DNA of 63,588 bases, filler included, from Actinomycetota bacterium (GTDB lineage Bacteria > Actinomycetota > CADDZG01 > JAHWKV01 > JAOPZY01), in the NCBI GenBank assembly GCA_025963875.1. It is 5 parts of 5 records of this genome, joined end to end, with 100 filler letters (N's around TTAATTAATTAA, not from the genome) between each part and the next. Parts side by side here need not be neighbours in the genome. Positions count along the whole stretch, not along the records: positions 16,318 to 32,595 come from JAOPZY010000252.1; 4 more parts are not named here. One strand, given 5' to 3'. Position 1 is the stretch's first letter, and every line of letters starts with the position of its first letter. Shown here piece by piece: positions 3,398 to 25,668 of the stretch. Under the pieces are notes generated by a model. It was not told where the DNA came from and ran no database searches. It was given only the letters and a program-made list of their open reading frames with translations. A program made the translations under genes and the position numbers.

Positions 3398-3411
3398 TCG
3401 CTCACCCCTGC

Positions 3412-7195: not shown

Positions 7196-7245
7196 CCCGA
7201 CCCATTTCCGCGACGCAGGCTTGACGCAGGCTTAAGGACAACGAC

Positions 7246-7494: not shown

Positions 7495-7512
7495 GGGGTC
7501 GTTGAGCGACTC

Positions 7513-8337: not shown

Positions 8338-8364
8338 GCGCTCCACAACATGGTTCTAGACATT

Positions 8365-8411
8365 TTTGTTTGTTTCGCCGCGACCGCGCTCTACGCGGTA
8401 AAACAAACAAA
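8365..8411. terminator. Intergenic inverted repeat between convergent genes (terminator/REP-like)
   Basis: TTTGTTTGTTT...ACCGCG-CTCTA-CGCGGT-AAAACAAACAAA. Confidence 0.5.
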
Positions 8412-8590
8412 GTCCATATGCCTGTGCCGGCCACCCACGAGGTATGGAATGGCGTGTGCCCCTACTGGTGGACTTGGAGATTAGGTTAGTCGCCTATCGC
8501 GCGTATCTGCGCGATCGCGGACTATCCACGTGGCCACCGGGTCTTCTGGGCGCGCGATGCCACCTTGATGGGGTATTTCACCCCAGAAGA

Positions 8591-9499: not shown

Positions 9500-11004
9500 A
9501 CCATCCGCCGGAACTGCAGCGCCTCGGCGATCTGAGCCTCCCCGACGACCTCAGCTCCGTCGAGGTCGGCGATGGTCCGGGCTACCCGCAGAAGCCGGTG
9601 GAAGGCCCGGGCCGATGCGTACTGGTCGGCAAGCGCGCTCCGGAGGAAAGCCCTGCTCCCCGCATCGAGGCAGCAGGCGTCCTCGATGTCGGTGCCGGCG
9701 ACCGCCCCGTTCAGGGACTCCGTCCGCCGAAGCTGCGCTCGCCGCGCCTCGAGCACGCGTGCCCGGACCACCCCGGACGGCTCCGAGGGCTCCATCTGGA
9801 GCAGCTCCTCTTCGCTGAGCGCGGCCACCTCCACCTGGAGGTCGATGCGGTCGAGCAACGGCCCGGACAGGCGGCCCCGGTAGGCCTCCAGCCGTCCGGC
9901 CGAGCACGTACACGTTTGGCCCCCCTGGCTCCGCCGGCCGCACAGGCACGGATTGGCCGCGGCGACGAGGGCGGTGCGAGCCGGGAACCGCACGGTTGCG
10001 CCCCGCCGAGCGATGGTGACGAAGCCGTCCTCCAGCGGCTGGCGGAGCCCGTCGAGCACCGCCCCACCGAACAGCGGGACTTCATCCAGGAACAGGACGC
10101 CGTGAGAGGCCACCGATACCTCTCCGGGCCTTGGCATGGGGCTCCCGCCGCCGATGACGGCCGCCGCGGAGGCGTGGTGGTGCGGCGCCCGGAACGGCCG
10201 GGCCGTGACCACGGACTCGCCCGCGGAGAGCAGCCCGGCCACGGACCAGACGTGGGTGACCTCCAGCGCCTCCTCAACCGAGAGGGGCGGCAGGATGCCC
10301 GGCAGGCGCCGGGCGAGCATGGTCTTGCCGGACCCGGGCGGCCCGACCATCAGGAGGTTGTGGCCCCCCGCCGCGGCGATCTCCAGCGCCCGGCGGGCGA
10401 GGGCCTGCCCCCGCACCTCGGAAAGGTCGGGCCCGCCCGCAGCCGCCCGAGCGAGCAGCTCCCCGATGAGCGGCGGGGTGGTGACCGCATCGACGGTGCC
10501 ATCGACGATGGCCAGGGCCTCGGTGAGGCTCGCTGCACCGGACACCTCGACGCCGGGCACGAGCGCCGCCTCGGGGGCGTTGGCCTTGGGCAGCACGAGG
10601 CGGCGGACGCCGAGCTCGCGTGCCGCAAGGGCGGCGGCGATCGCGCCGCGCACCGGCCGCAGCGTCCCGTCGAGTGCAAGCTCGCCCAGGAAGAGGAACG
10701 GGCGGAGGGCCTCCGGCTCCAACAGGCCCGAGGCGGCAAGCACGCCCATTGCCAGAGGAAGGTCGAGGAGCGACCCCTCCTTGCGGAGGTCGCCGGGGGC
10801 CAGGTTGGCCGTGATGCGCTGGTTCGGCCATGCCTTCTTGGAGTTGACGACGGCCGCCCGGACCCGCTGGCGGGATTCGCGCACCCCTGCGCTGGGGAGT
10901 CCGACGATCTGGAAGTCGGGCAGATGCTGGTCGAGCGCTACCTCAACCTCGACCGGTCGTGCCTCCATGCCGATGAGTGCAATGGAGGATACTTTTGCGA
11001 ACAT
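9487..11004 (-). CDS. comM: YifB/ComM Mg-chelatase-like AAA ATPase
   Basis: NLAPGDLRKEGS, GPPGSGKT Walker A, RPFRAPHH, LFLDE, SGPLLDRID. Confidence 0.95.
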   Translation of the reverse strand: MFAKVSSIALIGMEARPVEVEVALDQHLPDFQIVGLPSAGVRESRQRVRAAVVNSKKAWPNQRITANLAPGDLRKEGSLLDLPLAMGVLAASGLLEPEALRPFLFLGELALDGTLRPVRGAIAAALAARELGVRRLVLPKANAPEAALVPGVEVSGAASLTEALAIVDGTVDAVTTPPLIGELLARAAAGGPDLSEVRGQALARRALEIAAAGGHNLLMVGPPGSGKTMLARRLPGILPPLSVEEALEVTHVWSVAGLLSAGESVVTARPFRAPHHHASAAAVIGGGSPMPRPGEVSVASHGVLFLDEVPLFGGAVLDGLRQPLEDGFVTIARRGATVRFPARTALVAAANPCLCGRRSQGGQTCTCSAGRLEAYRGRLSGPLLDRIDLQVEVAALSEEELLQMEPSEPSGVVRARVLEARRAQLRRTESLNGAVAGTDIEDACCLDAGSRAFLRSALADQYASARAFHRLLRVARTIADLDGAEVVGEAQIAEALQFRRMVWQA

Positions 11005-11010
11005 GAGTCG

Positions 11011-11032
11011 AGAGTAGCGACGACCACCGACA
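11011..11032 (-). promoter_or_regulatory. RecA-NDp (PafBC-type) DNA-damage promoter of comM-dprA
   Basis: Minus strand TGTCGG-N10-TACTCT, 6 nt before the comM ATG (leaderless spacing). Confidence 0.7.
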
Positions 11033-11073
11033 AAAAGTGGCCTGTTTTCGACTCCAGGGAAACTGCTGCGAAA

Positions 11074-11928
11074 CTAGGGCGTGAACGCCGTCCAGCCGGT
11101 GACGCCGTCGTTGGAGCCGTAGACGACCCGCTCCCTGGTGACGGCGAAGAACTTGCCGTTCTCCGCCGACAGCCCGTGGTCGTCCTGGCGCATCCCGGTC
11201 TGGTGCCACTGGAGGCCACCGTTCTCCGACAGCAGCACCCCGCCCGGAGTGCCGAGGAGGATGCGCTGCGGGTTGGAGGGATCGACGAGGACCGCCTGGC
11301 TCGGGGTGCCGAGGATGCGCTGCCACGTGCTGCCGGCGTCGTCGGTCCGCCACAGGCCCCCGATGGCCCCGACGAGGACCGAGCCCGGCTTGTCGCCCAC
11401 CACCGCCATGGCGAGGACGTCCGGCACGGGGGGCCCCGCCAGCGGCGCCAACTGCCCGCCGCCGCCGGCGATCCGGGTGATCGTCCGCCCCGCCGCCACG
11501 TAGATGGTCCCGCCCGGTCCGGGGGCGATGACGGTGCCGGTCACCCCGGTCGCCACGGTCCCGAAGGTGCGGAGGTCCCTCGTCGACTTGAGGACGCCCC
11601 CGGCCAGGACATACGACGTCGTGCCGTCCGAGGCCACGGAGACCGGCTCCCGGGGAATGTTGGTGGCGGCCAGCCAGGTCCTGCCGTCGGGGCTCTTGAG
11701 GAGGCCGCCGGTGGTCCCGACGAGGAAGCCCTGCCGGATGGCTGCCAGGGACAGGATGGAGTCGCTCCCGGGAATCGACCCCTGGATGCGGCGGGTGGAC
11801 AGCAGCGCCAGGATGAGCGCCCCCAGGAACAGGACGCTCACACCGACCCCCACCCACTGGATGCCGCGGTGACGGCGCCGGGGCGGCGCCTCAGCCTTAT
11901 CCGGCGCCTTGAGGGGCACCTCGGGCAT
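11074..11928 (-). CDS. Membrane-anchored BNR/beta-propeller repeat protein
   Basis: One N-terminal TM; Asp-box-like repeats SPDGRTW, TDDAGSTW, SENGGLQW, SNDGVTGW; ATG overlaps the yraN stop. Confidence 0.75.
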   Translation of the reverse strand: MPEVPLKAPDKAEAPPRRRHRGIQWVGVGVSVLFLGALILALLSTRRIQGSIPGSDSILSLAAIRQGFLVGTTGGLLKSPDGRTWLAATNIPREPVSVASDGTTSYVLAGGVLKSTRDLRTFGTVATGVTGTVIAPGPGGTIYVAAGRTITRIAGGGGQLAPLAGPPVPDVLAMAVVGDKPGSVLVGAIGGLWRTDDAGSTWQRILGTPSQAVLVDPSNPQRILLGTPGGVLLSENGGLQWHQTGMRQDDHGLSAENGKFFAVTRERVVYGSNDGVTGWTAFTP

Positions 11929-12302
11929 CAGAACGCCGCCTCGATGCGGGTGACCTCGACCCCGTTCGGCCCGACCACCACCCCGACGACGTCGAAGCGG
12001 CACTCCGTGAACACCGGCTTCTCGAGGGCGAGGTAGGCCTCGGCCACCCGGCGCAGCTGGCGTTGCTTGCGCCAGTCCACACCCAGAGCCGGGTCGACGT
12101 ACACGGGGGCCCGGCGAGCCTTCACCTCGACGAAGACGAGGCAGCCGTCCCGCCGGGCGACGATGTCCAGTTCGCCGAGGCGCAGGCTCCAGTTGCGATG
12201 GAGCACCGTCCAGCCCTCCGCCACGAGCCGGGCGGCGGCGGCGTCCTCGCCAACTTTTTGCACGTCGCTTCGGGATTGAAGGTTCTTGCGCATTGGTTTC
12301 AT
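11928..12302 (-). CDS. yraN: YraN family endonuclease
   Basis: GEDAAA, RNW..RLGELDIVA, FVEVKAR, RFDVV, IEAAF. Confidence 0.93.
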   Translation of the reverse strand: MKPMRKNLQSRSDVQKVGEDAAAARLVAEGWTVLHRNWSLRLGELDIVARRDGCLVFVEVKARRAPVYVDPALGVDWRKQRQLRRVAEAYLALEKPVFTECRFDVVGVVVGPNGVEVTRIEAAF

Positions 12303-12319
12303 GAAGATAGGCTGTGGGC

Positions 12320-12622
12320 ATGACGTCCGCGGCGCCGGCCAAGCCCGATACCATCGACCGTCCCGATCAGGACGAGGTCGCGGAGCCGCAGCTGCCGTGG
12401 GTCGTCATCGTCTGGAACGACCCCATCAACCTCATGTCCTACGTCACCTACGTCTTCCAGAAGCTCTTCGGCTATTCCAGGGACAAGGCGACCAAGCTGA
12501 TGCTCGACGTACACCATCGCGGGCGGGCCGTGGTGTCGTCCGGCCCCCGGGAGAAGGCTGAGATGGACGTCTATCGCCTGCACGCGTACGGCCTCTGGGC
12601 AACCATGACCAAGGACGCCTGA
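12320..12622 (+). CDS. clpS: ATP-dependent Clp protease adaptor ClpS
   Basis: [20 protein letters not shown]...[13 protein letters not shown]...LHAYGLWAT. Confidence 0.95.
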
Positions 12623-12627
12623 GCCAG

Positions 12628-13095
12628 TTGTTCCGGCGTCGCCGAGGTCAGGTGCGGGTGGCGCTCAGCGAGGAGGAGGGCGAGCTGCTCAAGGGCATCG
12701 TCCGGGAGTATCTCGAGCTCCTCGACGCCGAGCGTGAGCCGGGCGACCCTGTGATCGCGCGGCTCTTCCCCTCGGCGAGCATCGACGACCCCACCCTGGA
12801 GGCCGACTTCCGTGAGCTTGCGGGCGGCGACCTCCAGGACCACAAGCGACAGGCTGCCCTGCGGGTGCTCGAGTACCTGGATACGGGGGACCGCCGTCCC
12901 CTGACCGACGACGAGCAGGAGGCCTGGCTCGTGGCCCTGACAGACCTTCGCCTCGCCATGGGCGTGCGCCTGGGCGTCACCGACGAGACGTTCGATGCGT
13001 TCCCCAACCCGAACGACCCCGCCCAGTGGCCGCTGGCCGTGCTGCACTACCTGGGGTCCCTGCAGGAGAGCCTGGTCGCCGCGCTCGACGCTTAG
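12628..13095 (+). CDS. DUF2017 family protein
   Basis: DPVIARLFP, AWLVALTDLRLAMGVRLG, LQESLV; usual clpS partner. Confidence 0.8.
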   Translation: MFRRRRGQVRVALSEEEGELLKGIVREYLELLDAEREPGDPVIARLFPSASIDDPTLEADFRELAGGDLQDHKRQAALRVLEYLDTGDRRPLTDDEQEAWLVALTDLRLAMGVRLGVTDETFDAFPNPNDPAQWPLAVLHYLGSLQESLVAALDA

Positions 13096-13113
13096 GAACC
13101 ACCACCAAACAGA

Positions 13114-13282
13114 CCGGGCGGAGCGGATGTTCGTCGCCTTTCGCGCGCAGGCGCGCGCCGGGCTCCTAACCTCGGCGGCCCGTCCAACAGGCTCGGCCGG
13201 ACGCGGGGGACACCGCCGGGCGGAGCGGATGTTCGTCGCCTTTCGCGCGTATGCGCGCGCCGGGCTCCTAAGTTCGGCGGCC
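13114..13282. repeat. Two 67-bp direct repeats (13114-13180, 13216-13282) with an internal GC hairpin; REP-like
   Basis: CCGGGCGGAGCGGATGTTCGTCGCCTTTCGCGCG...GCGCGCGCCGGGCTCCTAA..TCGGCGGCC twice, 35-bp spacer, between convergent genes. Confidence 0.85.
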
Positions 13283-13311
13283 ACCCAAGGTTGCTCGCAG
13301 GTTATCGCCGC

Positions 13312-13635
13312 TTAGTCCGTCAGCCGGCCCAGCGGGTCGCCGCTGCGGTCGGGGTGCTTCAGCTCCTCGATGTTGACGTCACGGAACGTCCGGACCGCCA
13401 CCTTGGTCACGAAGCGGGTGGGGCGGTAGACATCCCAGACCCACGCGTCGGTCAGCGTCAGCTCGAACCAGGTGTCCCCGCCGTTCTCGTGCTGGTCGAG
13501 GTGGTAGCCGTTGCAGAGGTAGAAGCGACGGGCGGTCTCGACGACGTAGCGGAACATCGGCAGGACGTCCCGGTACTCCTTGTACAGGGCCAGCTCGAGG
13601 TCGGTCTCGAAGCGTTCCAGGTCTTCGGCGCTCAC
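13312..13635 (-). CDS. DUF2469 family protein
   Basis: MSAEDLE..E..LELALYKEYRDV, VETARRFYL, DAWVWDVYRP; conserved position after rnhB. Confidence 0.9.
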   Translation of the reverse strand: MSAEDLERFETDLELALYKEYRDVLPMFRYVVETARRFYLCNGYHLDQHENGGDTWFELTLTDAWVWDVYRPTRFVTKVAVRTFRDVNIEELKHPDRSGDPLGRLTD

Positions 13636-14369
13636 GGCGTCAGACTATCCGGACTTGACCCTTGCCCGAGCAGCCGGCCCGGTACGCCCTCGTCGACGAG
13701 CTTGCGGATGGGGGCGTAGAGCCGCCGGTGGATGGGCGACGGCCCGAAGGCCGACAGGCCCCAGAGGTGCCTGGGGGCCGGATACCCCTTGTTGGCCTCG
13801 AAGGCGTAGTTCGGGTACAGCTCGGCCAGCGACGACATGAGGGAGTCCCTCGCCACCTTCACCACGATGGAGGCCGCAGCGATCGACACCGACTCGCAGT
13901 CCCCTCTTACCACCATCCGGGCACGGTCGCCGATGAAGTTCCACTTGCCGTCGACGAGGAACACGTCGGGCGTCACCGGCAGCGCCGCCACCGCCCTCGC
14001 CCCGGCCCGGCGGATCGCCTCGGAGAGGCCGACCTCGTCGATCTCGTTCGGCCAGGCGAGGCCCACGCCGTGGCCCACGCAGCGGCCCCGAACCCGCTGG
14101 GCGAGCCATTCCCGCCGGGCGGGGTCGAGCAGCTTGGAGTCACGAAGCTTGTAGATCCGGTCGGCCGGGTCGAGCACGACGGCGCCGACGGCCACCGGGC
14201 CGGCCCAGGCTCCGACCCCCACCTCGTCGATGCCGCCCACGAGGGCGGCGCCGTCCGCCAGCAGCCCCCGCTCGAGGTGGAGACCCGGCACGGGCTGGGT
14301 GCGCGCGACGCGGCCCTTGCTGAGGTAGGTCCGGGTGCGGTAGGTCGCCTTGTACGCCACGTCCGGCAT
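13632..14369 (-). CDS. rnhB: Ribonuclease HII
   Basis: GIDEVGVGAWAGP, DSKLL, SIAAASIVVKVARD, NKGY. Confidence 0.93.
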   Translation of the reverse strand: MPDVAYKATYRTRTYLSKGRVARTQPVPGLHLERGLLADGAALVGGIDEVGVGAWAGPVAVGAVVLDPADRIYKLRDSKLLDPARREWLAQRVRGRCVGHGVGLAWPNEIDEVGLSEAIRRAGARAVAALPVTPDVFLVDGKWNFIGDRARMVVRGDCESVSIAAASIVVKVARDSLMSSLAELYPNYAFEANKGYPAPRHLWGLSAFGPSPIHRRLYAPIRKLVDEGVPGRLLGQGSSPDSLTP

Positions 14370-14401
14370 TATGAAACGTGCGGCACCGAGATGGTGGGCG
14401 T

Positions 14402-15130
14402 TTAGAAGAAGTGGAAGCGGTTCACCGGCCAGATGCGCAGGAAGGCCTGGCCGAGCACGCTGGATTTCGTGATGGTCCCGAACATCCGGGAGTCGTCGGA
14501 GTTCGAGCGGTTGTCGCCCATGACGAACAGGTGGTCCTTCGGCACCTTGGTCGGGCCGTAGTCCCCCATCCCCATCGTGGCGGGGTTGTGGTCTTTCAGG
14601 TACGGCTCATCCTTGCGCACGTTGTTGACGTAGAGGGCGTTGTCCTTGACCTGCACCGTGTCACCGCCCACCGCCACGACCCGCTTGATGAAGTCCCGCT
14701 GGCTCGACGGCAGGCCCAGGCCCTCCTTCAGGGAGTTGAGGAAACCCGAGATGCCGCCGGATGGTGCCGGCAGGCTCGTGGTGGCAGACGGCGGCGCCAC
14801 GAAGACCACGATGTCGCCCGGCCGGGGGTCCTTGAACCGGTAGATGAATTTCGAGACCAGGACCCGGTCGTTGACCAGCAGCGTGTTCTGCATCGACTCG
14901 GACGGGATGTAGAACGCCTGGACGACGAACGTTTTGATGATGATGGCGATCGCGAACGCGACCAGGACGAGGATCGGCAGCTCTCGCAGGAAGCCGAGGC
15001 CGCTCTCCTCCTTCGCCCGGGGGGTCTTCGGGGCCTCGAGGGCCTCGTCCTCGTCCGGGCGCGCCGATGGGCCCGAGGGTGGGCTGAACTGTGCGGTCCC
15101 CTTCGCGGAGTGCCGCCCGTGGAGCGACAC
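14402..15130 (-). CDS. lepB: Signal peptidase I
   Basis: IPSESM (Ser), FIKRV (Lys), GDNRSNSDDSR. Confidence 0.95.
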   Translation of the reverse strand: MSLHGRHSAKGTAQFSPPSGPSARPDEDEALEAPKTPRAKEESGLGFLRELPILVLVAFAIAIIIKTFVVQAFYIPSESMQNTLLVNDRVLVSKFIYRFKDPRPGDIVVFVAPPSATTSLPAPSGGISGFLNSLKEGLGLPSSQRDFIKRVVAVGGDTVQVKDNALYVNNVRKDEPYLKDHNPATMGMGDYGPTKVPKDHLFVMGDNRSNSDDSRMFGTITKSSVLGQAFLRIWPVNRFHFF

Positions 15131-15133
15131 CGG

Positions 15134-15481
15134 CTAGAAGCGCTTCTCTTTGACCTTGGCCGCCCGGCCGACCCGGGAGCGCAGGTAGTAGAGCTTGGCC
15201 CGCCGCACGTCGCCGTGGGTGACGATCTCGAGCTTGGCGATCATCGGGGAGTGGACGGGGAACGTCCGCTCGACGCCGACGTTGTTGAACGAGATCTTGC
15301 GGCAGGTGAAGGTCTCACGGATGGCGGAGCCCTGGCGGCGGATCACCATGCCCTGGAACACCTGGATCCGCTCCTTGCCACCTTCGACGACTCGGACGTG
15401 CACCTTCACGGTGTCACCAGGGCGGAAATCGGGGAGATCCTCCCGCAGCACCGGACGCAAAAGGGCGTCGGTCTTCTCCAT
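15134..15481 (-). CDS. rplS: 50S ribosomal protein L19
   Basis: [37 protein letters not shown]. Confidence 0.98.
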
Positions 15482-15560
15482 TGCTCCTCCTTAAGGCGGC
15501 TCTTGCCCGGATTGGCGCCCAGCATTGGCGCTGTGCACTCGCTTGTAGGCGCCGGCAGTC

Positions 15561-16217
15561 CTACTCGCGGCCGGTAAAGGGCCGGGAATTCGATGATAAC
15601 AGAGCCCGCCACTCGGCCACGAGGTCGCGTTCGTCGTCGGACAATTCGCCTGCTCTGATCGCAGCATCGACAAGGTCTGGCCGCTGCTCGAACGTCCGGC
15701 GGAGGCTCTGCTGCCGCCGCCACCTGGCGATGCGCCCATGGTCGCCCGACAGCAGGACCTCGGGGACCTTGAGGCCGCCGATCTCGGCGGGCCGCGTGTA
15801 CTGGGGGTACTCCAGGAGTCCACCCGTGAACGACTCCTCGGCCAGGGAGTCGAGGTTGCCCAGGACCCCGGGCACGAGGCGGGCGACGGCTTCGATGACG
15901 ACGAGCGCCGCCACATCGCCGCCGGCGAGCACGAAGTCGCCGATCGAGACCGTTTCCGCCCCCACGAGCCCGGCGACCCGGTCGTCCATCCCCTCGTACC
16001 GAGCGCAGATCACCACCACCTGCTCCTCGGCGGCCAGCTCGGCGGCAAATGGCTGGTCGAAGCGCCGCCCCGCGGCCGAGAGCAGCACGACCCGGCCGGA
16101 GGGCCGGCGGACGGCCTCCACGGCCGCGACGACGGGGCCCGGGGTCATCACCATGCCCGCTCCGCCTCCGAAGGGGGTGTCGTCGACCTTGCGGTGCGGC
16201 CCCTGGCCCCAGGCCCG
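15561..16217 (-). CDS. trmD: tRNA (m1G37) methyltransferase TrmD; 5' end lost at the contig edge
   Basis: VDDTPFGGGAGM, RYEG.DDR, SIGDFVLAGG, LEYPQYTRP, LLSGDH. Confidence 0.95.
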   Translation of the reverse strand, partial: RAWGQGPHRKVDDTPFGGGAGMVMTPGPVVAAVEAVRRPSGRVVLLSAAGRRFDQPFAAELAAEEQVVVICARYEGMDDRVAGLVGAETVSIGDFVLAGGDVAALVVIEAVARLVPGVLGNLDSLAEESFTGGLLEYPQYTRPAEIGGLKVPEVLLSGDHGRIARWRRQQSLRRTFEQRPDLVDAAIRAGELSDDERDLVAEWRALLSSNSRPFTGRE

Positions 16218-16317
16218 NNNNNNNNNNNNNNNNNNNNNNNNNNNNNNNNNNNNNNNNNNNNTTAATTAATTAANNNNNNNNNNNNNNNNNNNNNNNNNNN
16301 NNNNNNNNNNNNNNNNN
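16218..16317. other. Artificial contig spacer
   Basis: N-run around TTAATTAATTAA (stops in six frames). Confidence 0.98.
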
Positions 16318-17449
16318 GCTCGTCGCGCATCAGGGCGAAGTTGTGCCCTGCCGAGTAGCTGTACAGGAGACCGTCGCCGTCCTCACCGGTCAGGTCCGTG
16401 AGCTCGGTGACCACGCCGGTGATGGGGCTGACGTGGTGTTCGAGGCGGCCGTAGGTGACCTCCGAATGGACGCTGCGGTGCCCTCCGTCGGATCGGCTCG
16501 CCTGGGGCCGGGACCGAAGGACCACCGGCTCCGGCGGCCGGCGGAACCCCGCGGCGTCCCCGCACCCCCCGCACTGGGGGCGCCGGGTGAGGACGTGGTG
16601 CCGGGTGACAAGGGTGCGGGTGTCCAGGGTGACGACCCTGCCTCCCAGCATCGACAGGTCGGCCGAGACAATGAACTTCGCCGCCTCGGATGCCGCGAGC
16701 TGCAGGGCCGCGTCGACGTAGGGAGCCAGGGCTGCCCGGGAGACGACGAGGGGCCGGGACACACCGGACCGGCGCTGGAGGAACCCCTCCATCTGGCGGT
16801 TGGACCTGAGGCGCTGGGCGAGGCACTCCCAGCAGCCGGTGACGCCCGGGGCGAAGATCGGCCCGAGCCACACCTGCCGCCCGACCGGCTTGACCGGCAT
16901 CCAGGGGCGCCCGGAGGCGAGCGCCAGGCGGTTCACCTCGCCCAGGCGATCGTCGAGGTAGTCGTCGACGAGCACGAGCTGCAACGTGGCGCCCTCCGCT
17001 CCGTTCCGGGCATCGTGGCCCGTCGTGGCGACCAGGGGCTCAAGCGCGCGGTTCATCGGGCCGGCGGGAACCGAGCCCAGCGAATGGACGGCGACTCGGC
17101 TCTCCTCGAGCCGAGTCGCCACCGTGCTTGCATCCATGTTGAGTCCGTGCCAGAAGGCGAGCGCCTCCGCCGCCATCGCATGGCCGCTCTCGAGCACGTA
17201 TCCCTGCTCCCGGAGCGTGGTGAGCCCGAAGAGCAGCTCGGGGAAGGGAACGCTCGGAGCGACTGTGCCGGCGAGCTCGGAGAGCGTGCGCGTCCCGTCG
17301 AGGTCGCTCGCAACGAGCGGGAGCGTCCGACCTGCGATGACGACGTAATCGGTTTCGTCGACCAGGACGACGTGGGTGTCGTCCACGACCTGTACGTGAT
17401 AGGAGGAGTTCCATTGCGGCTTGAGCAGCATCCCGTTACTCCGATCCAC
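16318..17449 (-). CDS. Fused TOMM cyclodehydratase (RRE + E1-like/ocin-ThiF + start of YcaO); 3' part lost at the contig edge
   Basis: LDGTRTLSELA (RRE-like), WLGPIFAPGVTGCWECL and RRPQCGGCG, then DGGHRS...HHVSPITGVV (YcaO start). Confidence 0.9.
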
Positions 17450-17506
17450 GTCCGTGCTCCGACGCAGCGTTTCGTGCTGGAGAGCTGCGGGCCAGCTCGG
17501 CCCGCG

Positions 17507-17857
17507 TCACGTGCAGGAGCAGCAGGGGCAGCAGCAGCAGCAGTACGAGGTGTCGGCGGCAGCCCCCTTGGCTGCGGCGGACGTCTGCAGTCCGAGCTGC
17601 GGCTGGGGAGGGATGTAGAGCACGTATTTTCCAGTATCGGCGCCCTTGTTCCAGGCGTCGACTGCGGCGTTGATGTCGCCGCTTCCGCCCATGGTCTGGT
17701 CGATCTGCACCGTCCCACCGGGCTTCACGGGAAGGCCGGCCTGGGCCAGCAACGTCGTCGGGTCCTTGAGCAGCTGGCTGAGGTAGTTCTTGTCCGTCCA
17801 GGCGTTCACCAGGACCTTCGAATAGTTGTGCGTAAACGTGGCGGTGTCTATAGGCAT
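17507..17857 (-). CDS. NHLP-type RiPP precursor peptide with poly-Cys core
   Basis: Leader VLVNAWTDKNYLSQLLKDP...YVLYIPPQP resembles nitrile-hydratase-like leaders; C-terminus DTSYCCCCCPCCSCT; AGGAG RBS; directly upstream of the cyclodehydratase. Confidence 0.85.
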   Translation of the reverse strand: MPIDTATFTHNYSKVLVNAWTDKNYLSQLLKDPTTLLAQAGLPVKPGGTVQIDQTMGGSGDINAAVDAWNKGADTGKYVLYIPPQPQLGLQTSAAAKGAAADTSYCCCCCPCCSCT

Positions 17858-18304
17858 GATTTCACGTCTCCTGATCTCGAGGGAGGGACGGGCAGTGTTC
17901 TTGCATGCCCCGTAAACTCCAAAGATTTCACGGCCGCCGCGGTCGCTACCTCATGCGGAGCCGGCAGCGTTTATTGCTGCCACGATTCACCTCCCTTCCG
18001 TACTTTGCGTGAGGTCCAATCGCGTGGAGGGTTTTGCCAGCCTCGTAATGAAACGGCGATTCGCATCTCCCGAACAGAGCATTCGGGCGTCTCTCGGAAG
18101 CCGCTCGGAGGTGAAACGCCTGCGGAAGCCCCCTCGCAGAGCACCCGCGCGTCCGGGGACGCGGCACCGAGCCGGGTCTGTCGGAGCTCAGCTCCTGGGC
18201 GTCGCGTTCGACGCGTCATCGCCGCCTGTTGGCGGCCGCGGCACCGAGTGCATGCCCGGGCGCGCCGGCCGGGAGCCGGCTGCTGTGGGCGTTCGGGAAG
18301 AGGC

Positions 18305-19648
18305 TCAGGCCTCCGTTGCCGACATGTCCCTGGGTCGTGCCCAGGTGGACGCGCTGGCCAGTTGCTCGTCCAGGTCCCCGACGGGCTTGAGGTGGTCCCA
18401 CTCTCGAAGCTGCTCGCGGAGCTGGGCTATCCGCCGGAGTGCCCGGGTCGACCGCGTCTCCTCCGCGATGCCAATGGCGTCACCGGCGATGCGGCACACT
18501 TTCTCGATATCTCCCTCGGGGATGTAGGTGGCGGCCAGCCGGGCCAGGTAGATGGCCTGCTCCCTGACCTCGCGGGCGGGCGAGAGCGTGATCGCCGTAT
18601 TGAGCGCCGCTCGCGCGGCCTCAGGGACGTTCAGCAGGGCGTAGCAGGTACCGGCTGCGCTGGCCAGGGCCACCCGGTCGTAGTGGTACATCCAGGGAGG
18701 ATCTTCTCCAGCGCTTTGCTTTCCGAGCAGGTTCTCTCCTCTCTCCAGCGCCTGCTCGGCCGCCGTGCGGCCCCCGAGCGTGGCCCAGACCTCCGCGTGG
18801 ACCGTCGCCAGCCAGGAGGTGATTGCCGGCGTGGCGGTGCGCCGTCCTCGTGTCTCGGCAGCCTCCGCGAAGGCCAGCCCTTCGTGCGGCTCGTCGCTGT
18901 ACGTCACAAGGACGCTCAGATACCCGAGGATGTACGCCGCCAGAGCCTCGTCCCCGACTTCGTGAGCGAGCCTCAGTGCTTCGTTGAACCGGCTGCGAGC
19001 AATCTCGTGGTGGCCCATGTCGAAAGCGAGCCACCCGAGAAACTGCGACAGCTGAGAGGTGAGGTTCACCAGCGCGGAGCGTACGTCATCCGTCTGCGCG
19101 CTCTCGAGCAGCCGGAGAAGCAGACTCCGATGTGCGAGAGCCGGAGCCACGGCGGCGCGGGGGCCCAGTAGATCGTCGACACGACGGAGACTTCCAATGG
19201 ACAGCGAGATGACCGAGATGACTTCCGGAGCAACTCGGGCCGGTTTCCGGATGATATCGGTCAACTCTTCCCAATTCGGCCACTCCGGTGATGTTTCAGC
19301 AGATAGGGCGCCGGAATCGCCGGTGGTTCTTTCCACCCGAGCTGCGATTTCCCCCCGCCGGGATCGCGGAGACAAAGACGGCTGGACGCCGAGCACTTCG
19401 GCAGAAGCCTCATAGAGAAGCGTCAGCAGTTTTGGGTAGGGGGCCCGAGGCATCTTTTCTCCTCGCTCCCAGCGTCCCACCATATCGGCATTGACCCCGA
19501 GATTCGACTCGCCAACTCGATTTCCCAGCTCAATCAATTGCTGCGCCACGTCCCCCAGGGACCAGCCTCGGCTGAGGCGATGCCTCCGTAGCTCGTCCAA
19601 GGGACTCCGCTTGTGGCCGGTACTCCGGTCTGACGGAATCGGTACCAC
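18305..19648 (-). CDS. XRE-family HTH regulator with helical/TPR-like C-terminal domain
   Basis: LRRHRLSRGWS...VGRWERGEKMP HTH; LGWLAFDMG, ALRLAHE repeats typical of large actinobacterial XRE regulators. Confidence 0.85.
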   Translation of the reverse strand: MVPIPSDRSTGHKRSPLDELRRHRLSRGWSLGDVAQQLIELGNRVGESNLGVNADMVGRWERGEKMPRAPYPKLLTLLYEASAEVLGVQPSLSPRSRRGEIAARVERTTGDSGALSAETSPEWPNWEELTDIIRKPARVAPEVISVISLSIGSLRRVDDLLGPRAAVAPALAHRSLLLRLLESAQTDDVRSALVNLTSQLSQFLGWLAFDMGHHEIARSRFNEALRLAHEVGDEALAAYILGYLSVLVTYSDEPHEGLAFAEAAETRGRRTATPAITSWLATVHAEVWATLGGRTAAEQALERGENLLGKQSAGEDPPWMYHYDRVALASAAGTCYALLNVPEAARAALNTAITLSPAREVREQAIYLARLAATYIPEGDIEKVCRIAGDAIGIAEETRSTRALRRIAQLREQLREWDHLKPVGDLDEQLASASTWARPRDMSATEA

Positions 19649-19916
19649 CCCCCCCCGTCACGCTCTGCCACCGTGCCAGAAGATCTTGGGCGACTTCTGT
19701 CGGCTTGGCAACATCAGCAACGATAGAGGCACATGAGAGCCGCATGAGAGACATCCGAAAGGCCGGTTTGGCATGGCTCGCGAGCTATTGGGACCCTGCC
19801 GGCCGGCTGCCGGGCGCCCGCCGGCGGCATCCTCCAGAAGCCCGGCCCCGTCGGTGCAGGCATGCGGCGATGACTGCACAGCCTTGCCTCCGAGGAGAGT
19901 CCGAGCCGCGTGCCGC

Positions 19917-20840
19917 TCATCCGGTGGTGGCACCGGGCAGGGCGGACGCGCCGGCCGGTGCGGCCGGCGCCGACGGACTCGCATCGGGGACGGCGCCGGT
20001 GACACGGAGTTGCGCCACGCGTCCCAGGAGGTCGAACCAGAAGGGTGCGCCCAGTGAAACGGCGATCGCGGTGAGCAGCCAGCCGACCAGCGCCACGTAC
20101 CACGTGCCGGGGCGCACGCCGTTGCCCCAGCCGATCGGCAGGGAGAGGCCGGAAATGGTCGCCAGGCCCGATGCCACGTTGCCGAGCGCCGAGGCCACCG
20201 CCTGCCGGTCGCTCGACGGGGGCGGCACCGCTCGCTGGGCCTGCTGGGCCACCGCGTCTCTCAGCGGTGCATCCGTCCAGAGGCGCTGGGTCATGGTGAC
20301 GGCGTTGACGTTCAGGCCCACGGCGAGGATCAGGCCGAAGGCCAGCAGCATCGCCTGCGCGCGCCGCCGGTACCAGCCCGACACCCGGTCCATGCTGTCG
20401 TCGAACCAGTGTGCGACAGCCCTCTGGAAACCTGCGATGTCCTCGCCGGCCTCCCTCCAGAGGACGTCGAGTACTGCTTTCACCTGCCCGTCCGGCAGGT
20501 CCTTGATGGCCGTGGCCACCGCGGCGGTACCCGCCGCGGCACCGCTGGCTGCGACGCTCACGGCCGGCCTGACCTTGTTGTCCAGCAGCGCGATGGCGAA
20601 TTTCTCGGACGGCAGGTAGGACGGCCCTTTCCTGCCCAGGTAGAGCGACTGGACCAGGGGGTGCCGGTAGAGGTCCTCCGCGTCGGAGGGATTGCCGAGC
20701 ACGTGAACGATCCCCTGCTTGAGCGTCCCGGCGCGCAGCCGGAGGGCTGCTGCGACCAGCTCGTTCGCTCCAGAGGCCACAAGGCTGAGGACGATGAAGA
20801 CAAAGGAGAGACCGATTACAACCTCGAGGATGACGGACAT
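19917..20840 (-). CDS. Conserved hypothetical membrane protein
   Basis: PSYLP..FA.ALLD, WFDDSMDRVSGWYRR, GWLLTAIAVSLGAPFWFDLL; about 3 TM. Confidence 0.8.
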   Translation of the reverse strand: MSVILEVVIGLSFVFIVLSLVASGANELVAAALRLRAGTLKQGIVHVLGNPSDAEDLYRHPLVQSLYLGRKGPSYLPSEKFAIALLDNKVRPAVSVAASGAAAGTAAVATAIKDLPDGQVKAVLDVLWREAGEDIAGFQRAVAHWFDDSMDRVSGWYRRRAQAMLLAFGLILAVGLNVNAVTMTQRLWTDAPLRDAVAQQAQRAVPPPSSDRQAVASALGNVASGLATISGLSLPIGWGNGVRPGTWYVALVGWLLTAIAVSLGAPFWFDLLGRVAQLRVTGAVPDASPSAPAAPAGASALPGATTG

Positions 20841-21004
20841 TGCCGAGCTACCCCCCGGTCGTCGAGTCGTGGCGATCGTAGCCCAACCGGTTCGGTTCCG
20901 ACAGAGTCTGCGACGCGTCTCCCGGCTGCAGGGGTCGGAACGTTGCCTTCCTCACGGTGCCGGTGGAACCGGGCCGACTGCCCGGTGCCAGCCGAGGTCG
21001 TGCA

Positions 21005-21343
21005 TCATGACGTGTCACGGGTGGCTGGTTTGCGACGGTAGGTCATCTGGACCGAGGCCTGGGCGCCCGTGGAGGCGATGAAGCCGAGATGGCCCTCCGC
21101 GCTGAAGCCGAGCTCGAAGACCACCTCATGGAGGTCGAAGTTCTCGACGCTGGTCGCCACCCGCTCGAGGAAGGCCTTCATTTGCACGCCGATCGCCTCC
21201 CACTCCGCCGCCACATCCTCCTTGCGGCGCTGGATGAAATCCCCCACCTTTCCGTAGTCCTGCTCGGCCCCCAGCGGCCCCCCGCTCAACTCCGAGCCTC
21301 CCCCGATGAACACGATGAACTCTGCCGCGTCGTCCTCCGTCAC
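21005..21343 (-). CDS. Pepco/Trypco-like peptidase co-occurring small protein
   Basis: Amphipathic helix then FDLHEVVFELGFSAEGHLGFIASTGAQASVQMTYRR; GTGA overlap with the protease stop. Confidence 0.7.
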   Translation of the reverse strand: MTEDDAAEFIVFIGGGSELSGGPLGAEQDYGKVGDFIQRRKEDVAAEWEAIGVQMKAFLERVATSVENFDLHEVVFELGFSAEGHLGFIASTGAQASVQMTYRRKPATRDTS

Positions 21344-23319
21344 GCTCCGCCTCCGTCTCCCCCCTCGAGCAGCTGGAGCTGCCACACCTGCTCGATCTGG
21401 GTCAGCATGTGGACGCGCCCGAGCGTCCCGCCGTACACCTTGCGGACCCCGACGAACATTCCGTAGGGCCGCGGCCCGGGCGCGTACTCCGGGGATACTC
21501 GGTAGGTCGCCTCCCAGACCATCGAGCCGGACCAGCCGGGCTGCCCGGTGACGTCGATCAGCAGGACCGCCGGGTCGCTGGGAGGCTGTCCGGGGGCGCC
21601 GGGGACGACGCCCTGGGGTACCTCCATCTCCACGACGTGCCCGGCCACGACGGAGCCCTCGGGGCTTCGCATCTCGATGGGGAAGTAGCCGGCGAAGGGA
21701 TAGGCGTGCACGCCGCGGGCGCCGGGCGCCGGCGACCCGTCCTCCACCACCGCGGCGTCCATGATGGGGTCCGCCCGGAGCACCCGGCGCTCGACCGGAG
21801 CCTGCTCGCCGGGCTGGGGGAAGCGCACCGTATCGTTCTCGCGCAGGGAGCGCTTGTCGCCACCCCTGGCTGCCACGTGAGCCGCCGTGAGGATTCCCGT
21901 CTCACCGCCCAGCCGCACGCTGCTGGTGACCATGCCCGTGTCGAGCCGCAGCCGGGTCCTGAGGGGTACCCTCCTGGGGCGGTCCTTGTACATGGGCCGG
22001 ACGACGACCGGAAACTGCTGCCCGTCCACCGTCACGAACAGGGGAGCCGCCTGGGGGAGTGCCGGGAGGCGGACGTAGAAGATCGCCGCAAGCCGGACCT
22101 GACCTCCCGCCTCGACGAAGCCGATCGTCACCTTGCGGACCCCGCGCAACCGCCGGCCTATCCCTCCCCGCCGCCGGACCGCGTCGTTCAGCGCAAGCAT
22201 CCACAGAGCGGCATGCCGGAACGGCTCCGGGGCGTCCGGGACCCGGTAGTAGTCGCGGCGGGCCAGCAGGTCGGCGATGTTGGCCGGCCGCTGCTGGGGC
22301 AGGACGGCCCGGGCGGCTCGGGCAAGCTCGAAGCGGGCGGGCGGGGGCGCGCTCGTGAAGCTCGTGTCCCCCCCGAACCTCCAGCCGCGCCGCCACCGCC
22401 CCACTCCGAGCAGGGCAGCCGGCGCCGCGCCGGTGGTGACGAGGCCCACCGTGGCCGACCCGGCGACCGCGAGAGCGATTGCGCCGGGGACCCAGGGAGA
22501 GCCGGGCAGCCCCCTGTGGTGCCCCGACGTGGGCGGTGCCTGCCCTTCGACGAAGGGAAGCGCCTTGCCGGAGCGCGTGGGCTCCGGCGACGGCGACTGG
22601 CCGGGCGCCGGCGACGGCCCTGCCGGGCCGGAGGACGAGGTCGGAACCGGCGTGGGCGATGGCGACGGGCCCGGCGTCGGCCCGACCGGGCCGGGGAACG
22701 GAGTGGCAACGGGCGTCGGTGAGCGCGGCAGGAAGACGCCGTTGCTGGGAGCCGGCGCGGGTGCGGTACTGGGGCAGGCGCCGAGGAGAGGGAGGCCGAG
22801 CAGGGTCACCTGGGTGTCCAGGGAGGTCGAGTTGTTGGCCGGCTCGGGATCGGGCTGGCTGCCCGTCACGGTGGCAGAGTCGCTGACGCAGGCGGGGAGC
22901 AGCGGAGCCGTGACGTCGACGGTGACTACTGCAGAGCTGCCGGGGGCAAGGGACCCGAGACTGCAGGCGACGGTGCCGTCGGAGTTCGTGCAGCTTCCCT
23001 TCGAGGCGCTCGTGGAGGAGAACTGCACCTGAGCGGGAAGGTTCTCGGTGAGCGTCACCGCGGTCGCCACGCCCGGCCCGGCGTTGGCGACCAGCAGCGT
23101 GTAGGAGAAGGGGAACAGGATCATGGCCGGATTGGGGGAGGCCGATGCGGCGACCGACAGGTCGGCGCCGGGGGTCTGGGCGCGTGCCTGCGTGGGCCAG
23201 ATGCCCACAAGGATTGCTCCGGTCAGCACCAGCCCGGCAAGACCGGCAGCGGCGCCTCCGGCCGTCCGGAGCAGGACCCGCTCTCTGGGTGTCACACGGC
23301 TCTCGTCGTTTGGAAGCAT
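21340..23319 (-). CDS. DUF11 (Ig-like) domain - Pro/Ser linker - TM - trypsin-like serine protease
   Basis: Signal peptide (ARA/Q), ADLSV...NAGPGVATAVTLT...DPEPANNS, TM, then LTAAHV / DAAVV / GQPGWSGS catalytic-triad motifs. Confidence 0.75.
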   Translation of the reverse strand: MLPNDESRVTPRERVLLRTAGGAAAGLAGLVLTGAILVGIWPTQARAQTPGADLSVAASASPNPAMILFPFSYTLLVANAGPGVATAVTLTENLPAQVQFSSTSASKGSCTNSDGTVACSLGSLAPGSSAVVTVDVTAPLLPACVSDSATVTGSQPDPEPANNSTSLDTQVTLLGLPLLGACPSTAPAPAPSNGVFLPRSPTPVATPFPGPVGPTPGPSPSPTPVPTSSSGPAGPSPAPGQSPSPEPTRSGKALPFVEGQAPPTSGHHRGLPGSPWVPGAIALAVAGSATVGLVTTGAAPAALLGVGRWRRGWRFGGDTSFTSAPPPARFELARAARAVLPQQRPANIADLLARRDYYRVPDAPEPFRHAALWMLALNDAVRRRGGIGRRLRGVRKVTIGFVEAGGQVRLAAIFYVRLPALPQAAPLFVTVDGQQFPVVVRPMYKDRPRRVPLRTRLRLDTGMVTSSVRLGGETGILTAAHVAARGGDKRSLRENDTVRFPQPGEQAPVERRVLRADPIMDAAVVEDGSPAPGARGVHAYPFAGYFPIEMRSPEGSVVAGHVVEMEVPQGVVPGAPGQPPSDPAVLLIDVTGQPGWSGSMVWEATYRVSPEYAPGPRPYGMFVGVRKVYGGTLGRVHMLTQIEQVWQLQLLEGGDGGGA

Positions 23320-23745
23320 CCGGACAGCGCCAGCTACGGGAGTGAACCGCGAGCATTGGGTTGGTCAGGGCGTATCTGATCCTTAAGAACTCAGGATACT
23401 GAGCGAGGATCCGCCCAGGGGGCTGCTTTACCCGTCCCTTACCTGTCTATCTCCCGTGGAGCCTGTCCCTCCGCGTCCACCGTCTTTGCGGAGCAGCCCA
23501 CTTTGCGGAGCAGCCCGCCCCGAGCAATCACCATCACGAGCCGGGGTGAGCCTTCGCCCAGAGAACAGCATGGAGTCGTCCACACGTATGCCACGCTGAT
23601 CCTGGGCGGGACTGCACCGCGACGGCTTCCGTAGGGAGCCGCCCGCGTGGGATGCCAACCAGCCATAGCCAGTGCTTGATTGCCTCTTCCATGGAGCTGG
23701 GGGACATTGGGGCCGTTCGAAGGATTCAAGGCCTCTCCCACATTG

Positions 23746-23791
23746 TGGGCGCACGAGGATTTGAACCTCGGACCTCTTCCATGTCAAGGAA
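23746..23791 (-). tRNA. 3' half of tRNA-Val(GAC); fragment only, likely attachment site
   Basis: Minus strand TTCC-TTGACAT-GGAA anticodon arm, CGAGG-TTCAAAT-CCTCG T-arm, TGCGCCCA acceptor strand; D-arm and 5' half absent. Confidence 0.85.
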
Positions 23792-24004
23792 TTCACGACA
23801 TGCCATCTACCAGCACAAACGCAGCCTGACCTGCGGCGTTGTGTTCGTTGTCGTTCATCATGTACTCGTTGTTGCTCTACGTTCGCGGGATTTCCGCGGG
23901 ATGGATCAGCTCCCGGAGGCGTCCAAGACATAGTGGCTGGACCAGCCTGGGGAGGACAAACCCAAGATGCTCACGCCGTCAGGCACGGCATGCTCGCCCA
24001 AGAC

Positions 24005-24285
24005 TTAACCGGCCTTCAGGTAGTCACGAACCGCCCTGCAACCACTTCCCCGGCCGTCACTCCATTCTCTTCCGCCCGATGCTCAATCGCTTCCCGAAGC
24101 TCAGGCTCGAAACGAACTGGGAGTGCCTGCGCCGCGGCGGACCCCATGCGAGGCCGCCCAGGCCGTCGCCGCAGCTTGGACGGATCGAGGCCAGCCTCGG
24201 CCTCGGCTGCCATGCGTTCAACCACCTCAGGGGTAAGGTCGACGCCGCTTCGTGACCTTCCATAGGACCGCTCGTCTTCAGTCAT
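24005..24285 (-). pseudogene. Ribbon-helix-helix (CopG-like) protein with a 1-base frameshift
   Basis: GRPRMG...VRFEPELREAIEHRAEENGVTAGEVV; adding one base near 24040 gives ...RRAVRDYLKAG-stop. Confidence 0.7.
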
Positions 24286-24499
24286 CGGCACCTCGGGGAA
24301 GCAGCGCGGCATAGGCACGTCATACAGTAGTTGGTCCTTTGAGCGATCAGCGGCAGCTCGGCCCCTGTGATGCGGTCTGTCCTGGGCTCCAACGAGTGCA
24401 TCCGGATGGCCTCGGACACACCTGCCCACGCTGATCCTCGGAACCCCCGTCGAGATCGTCGGCTGATCCTGACGACGGATGGGAGCGGCTCTCGGTCGC

Positions 24500-25610
24500 T
24501 TACGGCGTTGGGGCCAAGCTGAGCTCTACGACCTGCACCAATGGACGCAGAGCGCCGCCGCTGGACGAGGACAGCCCGCTGGCGAGATAGACGGCACTCC
24601 CGACGGTTCCGATCGCCTCGTCCGCCACCGATCCAGGGAGCGACCCCGCAGGCGTCACTGTGGCATCGGCCGGATCGAATCGGAGGATCGCCGCGGTCGG
24701 TCCGGCAGGGGTCCAGCCGCCGAAGACGAGGATCTCCCCGTCGACGAGCGCCGCCCTGGCGTGAGCCAGGGGGACGTGAAGCTGTCCGATCACCCGCGAT
24801 TGGCCGGTGGCGACGTCGAAGCTCTGCACGACCGTGCTGAAGGTTCCGTTGTACTCTCCGCCGGCGGTGAGGCCCCCAAAGAGATAGATGGTCGTCCCGG
24901 TCACCGCGATTGCGGTAGCGCTCCGCCCGTGCGATCTGGCCCACGACCGAGAACGACGTGCCGTCGCGGGTGGCCCAGACGTCGCTGATGAACGCGGAGC
25001 CGTTGAATCCGGCCAGCAGGAACACATCGGCCCCCACCGCTGCCCCGACCAGGTCGGCCCGAGGGCCGGGCATGTGGCCGATCACGGAGGTGGCTCCGGT
25101 GGCGGGGTTGAAAGCTTGGACAAGGTTGTCGGGCGAGACGTCGGCGCCCCCAAACACCAGGATCTGGCTTCCGACCGAGACTGCGGCTGCGCCGTGGGTG
25201 GGGGTCGCCAGGTGCCCGGCCAGCCCGACCTGCCCGCTTGTGGGCTGGATCCGGTAGACGTCCCCCGACGACACGCCGTTGGGGTCGAGTCCTCCCAGGA
25301 GGAAGACGCTGTCGCCTGAGGCCGCCCCCATCGTTCGGTACCGGGGTGACGGCACGGTCCATGGCTCGGGCTGGGCCAGGAGCGACGCGCTGGGTGCGGG
25401 CAGCGGAGCCGTCGTCGGGGAGGCTGCCGCTGAGGGCGGTGCCCCTGCGGTGCCCGCGGTCGGTGTGGGCGTCCGGCCCGCCGCGCTCGGTCCCGGGCCG
25501 ATCGGGCCGCCGGAACTGCAGCCTGTCGCCACGACCAAGAGGGCGACGACCATCCCGGCGGGGCGGAGCGGCAGCCTGCGCCAACATCGATGGCGGCTAT
25601 GGTTCAGCAT
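24500..25610 (-). pseudogene. Kelch-repeat lipoprotein, frameshifted near 24914
   Basis: Lipobox VATGC; Kelch repeats (VFLLGG, ILVFGG, IYLFGG) split over two frames at ERY|AIAV. Confidence 0.75.
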
Positions 25611-25668
25611 GCCCTGCCTCGGACCGGGGGGAGCGTGTCCATCAGAGTATGCCCCTCGCGCCTGGGGG

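Follow-up and report, generated by a model that had tools for sequence, protein, structure and literature searches.

The DNA analysed here, a stretch of 63,588 nucleotides (the window), joins five contigs of the Actinomycetota bacterium assembly GCA_025963875.1. At the very start of the second contig it carries a small gene with a cysteine-packed end, next to a fragment of an enzyme gene (Table 1). This locus is probably the 5' end of an operon for a peptide that is made by ribosomes and modified after translation (RiPP) that combines a leader peptide resembling nitrile hydratase (NHLP) with the chemistry of the thiazole/oxazole-modified microcins (TOMMs), or linear peptides with azol(in)e rings (LAPs), and its product would be a polythiazole-rich peptide. 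As the original prediction had described, the gene encodes a precursor of 116 residues with eight Cys among the last 11, and this tail proved to be conserved in relatives. The prediction had missed that the precursor is one of many in a family whose core is conserved, and this shifts the interest of the locus.

The poly-cysteine tail and its family

The precursor ends in ...AAADTSYCCCCCPCCSCT, its final 15 residues being DTSYCCCCCPCCSCT, and all eight Cys codons of the tail are TGC. The longest uninterrupted run of Cys, Ser or Thr is five residues, and the runs are preceded by Tyr or Pro (TS-Y-CCCCC-P-CCSCT). Eight Cys in 11 residues is unique among the stop-free stretches of that length in the six frames of the window, where the next best has five, and the maxima in 40 windows simulated with a first-order Markov model were three to five; on these grounds a chance origin of the tail was excluded. 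The predicted lack of a double-Gly site next to the core was also borne out, since no GG occurs within 14 residues of the tail and the only one in the protein (residues 57-58) lies in a loop of the folded leader. A single precursor gene is visible in the window ahead of the contig break.

A word-indexed search returned only five close homologues (74 to 92% identity), all with the same tail. The survey of homologous precursors that had been proposed as a check was therefore widened with a profile of the window protein and these five, run on 1.84 billion representative proteins, which matched 236 clusters at E ≤ 1e-3, of which 68 reached E ≤ 1e-10. Tails were counted in the best 150 of the 236 clusters. 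At least five Cys within some 12 residues were found in 104 of these 150, and in 66 of the 68 clusters at E ≤ 1e-10. The stricter pattern of a Cys run, Pro and a second Cys run was present in 87 of the best 150; in 75 of the 87 it stands at the C-terminus or one residue short of it, and 47 of those 75 end in Thr. The tail consensus is CCCC[C/S/T]PCC[C/S/T]C[T], with Pro111 and Cys112 at least 90% conserved.

For the alignment, the 98 of the best 150 that have at least five Cys in the last 30 residues and a length of at most 150 residues were pooled. Five were dropped as fragments or tail-extended, and the remaining 93 were aligned with the window protein and four close homologues, which again makes 98 members. 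The commonest residue accounts for a fraction of 0.77 in the tail versus 0.41 in the leader, and the 93 distant members share 0.75 identity with the window protein in the tail versus 0.30 in the leader. This contrast is partly circular, as the tail was part of the first profile. A Flavobacterium precursor that is only 35% identical overall ends in exactly these 15 residues, DTSYCCCCCPCCSCT. By our count 11 of the 15 codons differ between the two, all synonymously, and this, read from the sequences, is a direct sign of selection. A tail so extremely conserved would suit a product that has a single, fixed target or ligand.

Leader and fused enzyme

The original prediction had assigned the precursor a nitrile hydratase-like leader of about 100 residues and had proposed to check it with hidden Markov models. 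For the protein alone the outcome was weak: TIGR03793 gave 19.9 bits (cut-off 50.9; E 5e-4), TIGR03795 19.9 bits (cut-off 41; residues 11-95 on model positions 16-102; E 7e-4), TIGR01323 18.3 bits (cut-off 249.85; residues 10-50 on model positions 39-79 only) and Pfam NHase_alpha 17.1 bits (cut-off 27.2). The assignment stood at the level of the family, whose 98-member profile gave E 2e-13 with nitrile hydratase alpha chains and E 3e-12 with the NHLP structure 8TB1. Among the 98 members, 75 matched TIGR03793 (best E 5e-17), 45 TIGR04351, 40 NF038399 and 36 TIGR03795. The nearest named clusters of the precursor in the ESM Atlas are NHase_alpha and NHLP, and 8TB1 is the best match among RiPP precursors in both fold and sequence profile. 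Together these comparisons argue strongly for the leader being, as a family, a member of the NHLP/nitrile hydratase alpha clan.

When 25 further members were scanned singly, none reached any curated NCBIfam cut-off; the top score was 48.9 bits and six had no match at E ≤ 1e-3. Therefore, no current NCBIfam model names the poly-Cys family. One relative, P0279, bears the precomputed Pfam label PF27793.1, which is absent from the local Pfam copy; this newer Pfam family may already cover part of the poly-Cys family.

An AlphaFold2 model built on the 98-member alignment (mean predicted local distance difference test score 77.9) places helices at residues 5-21, 23-31, 33-39 and 62-75 and strands at 49-53 and 77-81, and predicts disorder from residue 90 to the end. 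Only the helical N-terminal part matches nitrile hydratase. The identity of the protein as a nitrile hydratase alpha chain was rejected, given a score of 18.3 against 249.85 bits and a partial match in place of a full-length one with the metal-binding CxxCSC region. GG occurs within 14 residues of the tail in 48 of the 98 members. Nine others, the window protein included, carry a PQ[LIF][GF] motif, and none of these has GG as well.

These observations also bear on the idea that no RiPP is made at all, and that the gene encodes a small nitrile hydratase alpha-like protein with a metal or iron-sulfur site in its Cys tail while the neighbouring enzyme acts elsewhere. The modelled leader does appear to be a folded domain, the tail contains a C-S-C triplet, and a Cys cluster holds the metal in nitrile hydratase alpha subunits, as noted in the accessible part of Haft et al. 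2010 (PMC2887384). We nevertheless regard this idea as highly improbable, since the tail lies at the extreme C-terminus of a stretch predicted to be disordered, the match to nitrile hydratase stops at the helical part, almost half of the members have Gly-Gly just ahead of the tail, the C39 peptidase exporters of related clusters pass the NHLP cut-off, and the adjoining enzyme is a leader-peptide-binding cyclodehydratase.

That enzyme begins 57 to 75 nucleotides downstream of the precursor on the same strand, with a likely start at the ATG at 17431, where the alignment of relatives begins, and an in-frame GTG at 17449. Against TIGR03882 ("TOMM precursor leader peptide-binding protein") the fragment scored 154.9 bits (cut-off 36.9), and the two CxxC pairs of its E1-like region (C206, C209, C293 and C296) are invariant in 39 aligned enzymes. 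Residues 14-373 matched MusD, LynD and TruD at E 1e-60 to 1e-59, and the SagC model TIGR03603 gave 32.3 bits (cut-off 187.65). The fragment is collinear with residues 1-358 of a 741-residue Caulobacter enzyme (44% identity), in which the Pfam YcaO domain starts at residue 375, so that the window holds only the RiPP recognition element (RRE) and the E1-like part. Consistently, a Pfam scan of the fragment gave no family and no YcaO domain.

The original prediction had named a complete RRE-E1-YcaO enzyme; its first two parts were recovered and the third is absent from the window. We infer from the relatives that the missing half is a YcaO domain: there are 1431 longer ones, of which the best 120 have 673 to 796 residues and all carry YcaO (PF02624), the best being 51% identical. 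The prediction was right in placing the remaining cluster genes past the contig break, as the contig ends against the N-linker at 16318 and no YcaO domain was found in the other window open reading frames (ORFs) scanned.

The fragment shares the three-part architecture of LynD, TruD and MusD (PDB 4V1T, 4BS9 and 7U58), matching about their first 400 residues. Cyanobactin-type substrates have short unstructured leaders and clusters with PatA/PatG proteases. Such short unstructured leaders and PatA/PatG proteases were not seen at the poly-Cys loci.

Related loci, proposed chemistry and known systems

When 185,579 species genomes were scanned with CCCCCPCC, the pattern of a 20-member alignment, at least 599 stretches matched and at least 12 loci were confirmed. 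These come from Caulobacter, an Anaerolineales metagenome-assembled genome (MAG), two Streptomyces, Actinacidiphila, Cylindrospermum, a Flavobacterium MAG, two Myxococcus, and MAGs of Dermatophilus, Propionibacteriaceae and Streptosporangiaceae. We take the 12 loci to represent six phyla (Actinomycetota, Cyanobacteriota, Myxococcota, Bacteroidota, Chloroflexota and Pseudomonadota). Locus neighbours were identified by Pfam and NCBIfam scans of ORFs. The fused YcaO enzyme is present in nine of the 12 loci, the other three being contigs of 1.7 to 4.0 kb, and a SagB/ThcOx-type dehydrogenase in eight (L001, L003 to L006 and L010 to L012), and TIGR03605 scored above its cut-off in L001 and L010, the two loci to which it was applied. 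Because the same type of precursor stands with YcaO and SagB in so many loci, thiazol(in)e formation is the natural reading.

Further enzymes recur around the precursors. Seven loci have a B12-binding radical S-adenosylmethionine (SAM) enzyme, of two kinds whose nearest models, the C-methyltransferases HpnR and KedN5, gave scores below cut-off; L004 is an eighth radical SAM locus, with a HemN-like type. Cytochrome P450 occurs in four loci, DUF6445 in two, SAM methyltransferases in two and an S8 protease in one. A C39 peptidase ATP-binding cassette (ABC) exporter with HlyD is found in three loci, all three with Gly-Gly precursors (in L003, TIGR03796 gave 985 bits against a cut-off of 853), and an ABC-2 pump adjoins the precursor in four (in L003, the ATPase only). 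The exporters and pumps of the actinobacterial loci suggest a secreted and self-toxic compound.

The closest leaders among the loci (46% and 45% identity) belong to the Caulobacter locus L001 and the 1.7-kb Anaerolineales locus L002, both without Gly-Gly. L002 has no readable neighbours, and L001 has the order precursor, fused YcaO, SagB, DUF6445 and B12-binding radical SAM enzyme. Both Myxococcus loci have the order precursor, YcaO, SagB, B12-binding radical SAM enzyme and P450. From these gene orders, a SagB-type dehydrogenase would be expected directly past the break in the window.

Two precursor genes were observed in five of the 12 loci, all actinobacterial (L003 and L005 to L008; Table 1), and in L003, L005 and L006 the paired tails differ at one position, Cys to Ser (CCCCCP versus CCCCSP). 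In these three, the loci of the two Streptomyces and of Actinacidiphila, the second copy stands directly before the gene for the B12-binding radical SAM enzyme. In the Myxococcus loci, a Peptidase_C14 caspase-domain protein is encoded about 2 kb upstream of the precursor (L011, 5838-7871; L012, 6117-7859), separated from it by a sigma-54 activator and an extracytoplasmic function (ECF) sigma factor. This protein is a possible candidate for the leader protease of precursors that lack Gly-Gly, as is the S8 subtilase of the Cylindrospermum locus L004.

[quoted passage not shown] Applied to the window, the YcaO enzyme and ATP would cyclise each Cys of the tail, and probably Ser114 and Thr116 too, to azolines, and a SagB-type FMN dehydrogenase encoded just past the break would oxidise these to azoles. 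The product would be Tyr-(thiazole)5-Pro-(thiazole)2-oxazol(in)e-thiazole-Thr, in which the nearly invariant Pro forms the hinge between two rigid polyazole arms, with five rings from C106 to C110 and up to five after the Pro. In relatives, further decoration may come from a C-methyltransferase-class B12-binding radical SAM enzyme, and often from a P450, methyltransferases and DUF6445 proteins. The leader would then be removed, in the Gly-Gly half of the family by the NHLP-type C39 peptidase exporter. Extensive modification of a Cys-rich core has a precedent, as eight thiazol(in)es are installed in the Cys-rich LAP core of Lap-1, according to the available text of PMC9576775. The original prediction of a densely contiguous polythiazol(in)e is thus supported by the NHLP clan of the leader, the LynD/TruD/MusD-type neighbour, and the YcaO and SagB genes of the related loci. 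Its suggestion of a toxin or metal binder stays a guess.

Several observations weigh against this reading. The chemistry of the window is inferred from relatives, because no YcaO domain, dehydrogenase, protease or exporter is encoded in it, and the relatives share only 26 to 49% leader identity. No dehydrogenase was found among the ORFs scanned in L007. The window protein by itself falls under every curated family cut-off. Foldseek ranked 8TB1, an NHLP precursor, first for the precursor model (probability 0.90), followed by nitrile hydratase alpha chains, but gave no match with E ≤ 0.001 in the PDB and was used as weak support only. The coupling of leader and tail partly reflects how the matches were collected; a leader-only search with an alignment of the window and ten locus-encoded precursors returned the poly-Cys-Pro tail in 17 of 17 matches, a limited control because it was word-index based and found 17 proteins. 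Finally, some of the eight Cys may stay thiols or serve the radical SAM and P450 enzymes.

Comparison with characterised systems places the family near the NHLP precursors (TIGR03793). Shared features are a long leader that is folded and has homology to nitrile hydratase alpha, a short core at the C-terminus with many Cys, Ser and Thr, an adjacent TIGR03882-type fused cyclodehydratase and, in some relatives, the NHLP exporter TIGR03796. In the accessible part of Haft et al. 2010 (PMC2887384), NHLPs are defined by Gly-Gly at the leader end and a hypervariable core. The window protein, in contrast, scores below the TIGR03793 cut-off and lacks Gly-Gly at the leader end, and the family core is its most conserved part. 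The NHLP-Burk group (TIGR03795, BMA_0021/BMA_0022) shares a weak full-length match, a fused cyclodehydratase neighbour and Cys at the C-terminus. Its precursors are described in the same portion of that paper as occurring in pairs, either tandem or fused, that end in one or two Cys, whereas the window has a poly-Cys tail on a single precursor ahead of the break and scores 19.9 bits against the cut-off of 41.

In the Mpr system, the RRE of a fused YcaO cyclodehydratase recognises an NHLP leader and an FMN oxidase makes thiazoles; ten precursors with varied cores receive two to six azolines, as far as the available text of PMC12455567 describes. Relative to MprE/MprC/MprD as presented there, the window offers up to ten or eleven cyclisable residues in a single, fixed poly-Cys-Pro tail.

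The contiguous Cys runs, presumably contiguous thiazoles, are shared with the streptolysin S-like cytolysins (TIGR03602). A streptolysin S-like action, with a contiguous polyazole serving as a membrane-damaging cytolysin or bacteriocin, is suggested by these runs, by the exporters and ABC-2 pumps of the actinobacterial loci, and by weak matches of three of the 98 members to TIGR03602 (best E 5.5e-4). Cytolytic activity is, moreover, tied to contiguous heterocyclisable residues in the accessible text of Cox et al. 2015 (PMC4603692). We consider such an action improbable, as the window protein has no TIGR03602 match at E ≤ 0.01 and its longest run is five residues, compared with Gly followed by ten or more in that family as given in the same text. 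The leader is unrelated, the enzyme is fused rather than separate as SagC and SagD, the runs are shorter and broken by Pro, the accessory enzymes (B12-binding radical SAM enzyme and P450) differ, and the bacteria named in the locus records are environmental. Membership in the streptolysin S family was rejected, given the missing TIGR03602 match, the run of five and the fused enzyme. Cyanobacteria and myxobacteria make compounds with contiguous methyl-thiazolines (tantazoles, mirabazoles and thiangazole), to which a Cys run together with a B12-binding radical SAM methylase could correspond. A link to these was unsupported, as ring counts and flanking residues do not fit the tail and the text found in a literature search is silent on their biosynthesis.

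In the Flavobacterium locus (L010; precursor at 10001), a gene set at 3936-9576 (minus strand) is divergent from the RiPP operon. It encodes an ECF sigma factor, a small ORF, Metal_resist, MbnP, an MbnH-like di-heme enzyme, a protein with a type IX secretion (T9SS) tail and a second MbnH-like protein. This set may tie the operon to copper handling, as a single hint from one of the 12 loci.

The proposed biosynthesis could also lead to a conserved metabolite that serves the physiology of the cell, for instance as a chelator of metal (e.g., copper) or a redox-active compound, although we hold this to be rather unlikely. A product of this kind would resemble methanobactin or pyrroloquinoline quinone, which have conserved cores, more than a bacteriocin. 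It would agree with a tail kept over six phyla while the leaders drift (0.75 versus 0.30 identity), with the tail region common to the window and Flavobacterium despite 11 synonymously changed codons of 15, and with the divergent metal-related set of L010. To our mind, a Pro flanked by thiazole or thiol donors is also a plausible chelating geometry. However, metal-related neighbours occur in only one of the 12 loci, the peptidase exporters and ABC-2 pumps of the actinobacterial loci resemble the equipment of antibiotic clusters, and two slightly different precursors in five of the 12 loci fit the habit of bacteriocins. The boldest form of this idea, in which the family makes essentially one compound across six phyla, a Pro-hinged polythiazole that binds metal (e.g., copper) or carries electrons, is likewise put forward as a doubtful one. 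The operon for a polythiazole-rich NHLP/TOMM peptide, with no commitment to one function, remains the reading that we prefer.

Surroundings in the window and significance

Table 1. Positions of the features of the window and of the paired precursor genes in related loci
Feature	Sequence	Position	Strand	Remarks
Contigs	Window	1-16217, 16318-32595, 32696-53688, 53789-59113, 59214-63588		Five joined, 68-70% G+C
Artificial N-linkers	Window	16218-16317, 32596-32695, 53689-53788, 59114-59213		
First N-linker	Window	16218-16317		Joins two contigs; YcaO domain and all downstream cluster genes lost here
Fused cyclodehydratase, 5' part (RRE and E1-like)	Window	16318-17431	-	Cut by contig end; 377 aa left
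E1-like region (TIGR03882)	Window	16409-16909	-	Residues 181-347 of the 377-aa translation
Precursor gene	Window	17507-17857	-	116 aa and TGA stop; NHLP-clan leader, then poly-Cys tail
Poly-Cys tail (CCCCCPCCSCT)	Window	17510-17542	-	Residues 106-116; presumed core, cyclodehydration substrate
Linker (PPQPQLGLQTSAAAKGAAADTSY)	Window	17543-17614	-	Residues 82-105; without Gly-Gly; disorder predicted from residue 90
Folded leader part	Window	17615-17845	-	Residues 5-81; AlphaFold2 model
Shine-Dalgarno-like AGGAGA	Window	17867-17872	-	9 nt upstream of precursor ATG; read from the sequence
HTH/TPR regulator	Window	18305-19648		One of seven ORFs without relatives in the 12 loci
Membrane protein	Window	19917-20840		One of seven ORFs without relatives in the 12 loci
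Paired precursors	L003	9914-10354, 12400-12756		
Paired precursors	L005	9995-10354, 13412-13768		
Paired precursors	L006	6589-6960, 9995-10351		
Paired precursors	L007	5833-6228, 6416-6772		
Paired precursors	L008	152-532, 834-992		

Each N-linker consists of two runs of 44 N flanking TTAATTAATTAA, which gives a stop in all frames, and the gene neighbourhood is not readable across them. On the other side of the precursor, the seven ORFs at 18305-31040 were not counted as part of the cluster because tblastn found no relative of any of them in the 12 related loci. Among the genes upstream, a 659-residue DUF11 protein and then a 126-residue ORF lie at 21005-23319 (minus strand), 3.5 kb from the precursor; the smaller has a weak Pepco match (E 9e-5, below cut-off), and both lack relatives in the 12 loci. 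Between 17300 and 18400 no site resembling a promoter or terminator was found, and a hairpin just 3' of the precursor stop was no better than shuffles (z = -0.06). The contig with the precursor gave no tRNA and no Rfam family, and a search for T-loop-like motifs was also empty.

Elsewhere in the window, the third contig carries an IS605-type OrfB/TnpB gene at 33382-35061 (minus strand; OrfB_IS605 and a Cas12f1-like TNB domain). An encapsulin shell gene (Linocin_M18) lies at 51059-52296 (plus strand), preceded by an EncFtn-like cargo gene, and these adjoin genes for cytochrome bc1 and an aa3 oxidase.

NHLP precursors are known as carriers of hypervariable cores and as a natural case of combinatorial biosynthesis. 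The poly-Cys family reverses this habit, its leaders diverging to about 30% identity while an 11-residue, nearly all-Cys tail with a near-invariant Pro stays fixed. In the full-text literature searched, which leaves out subscription journals and supplements, no paper describes an NHLP family with a conserved poly-Cys tail, and the product, for which the original prediction had found no characterised match, stayed unmatched within the same coverage. The parameters of Cox et al. 2015 (PMC4603692) did not pick up NHLP precursors, according to the accessible text. The chemistry and the enzyme are those of the textbook; the family with its conserved core and the product are apparently undescribed.

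The fixed tail, together with the recurring set of YcaO, SagB, B12-binding radical SAM enzyme and P450, points to a specific, unnamed polythiazole under strong selection. The window supplies only the first two genes, and complete clusters are present in cultured strains such as Caulobacter sp. B11, the source of L001, several Streptomyces and Myxococcus. The product would rank among the most densely heterocyclised ribosomal peptides, as a candidate antibiotic, cytotoxin or metal binder, and its formation offers a test case for how a cyclodehydratase handles five consecutive cysteines. If the family does make one conserved compound, it would represent a new conserved-core RiPP metabolite built on the NHLP scaffold, and not another variable bacteriocin.

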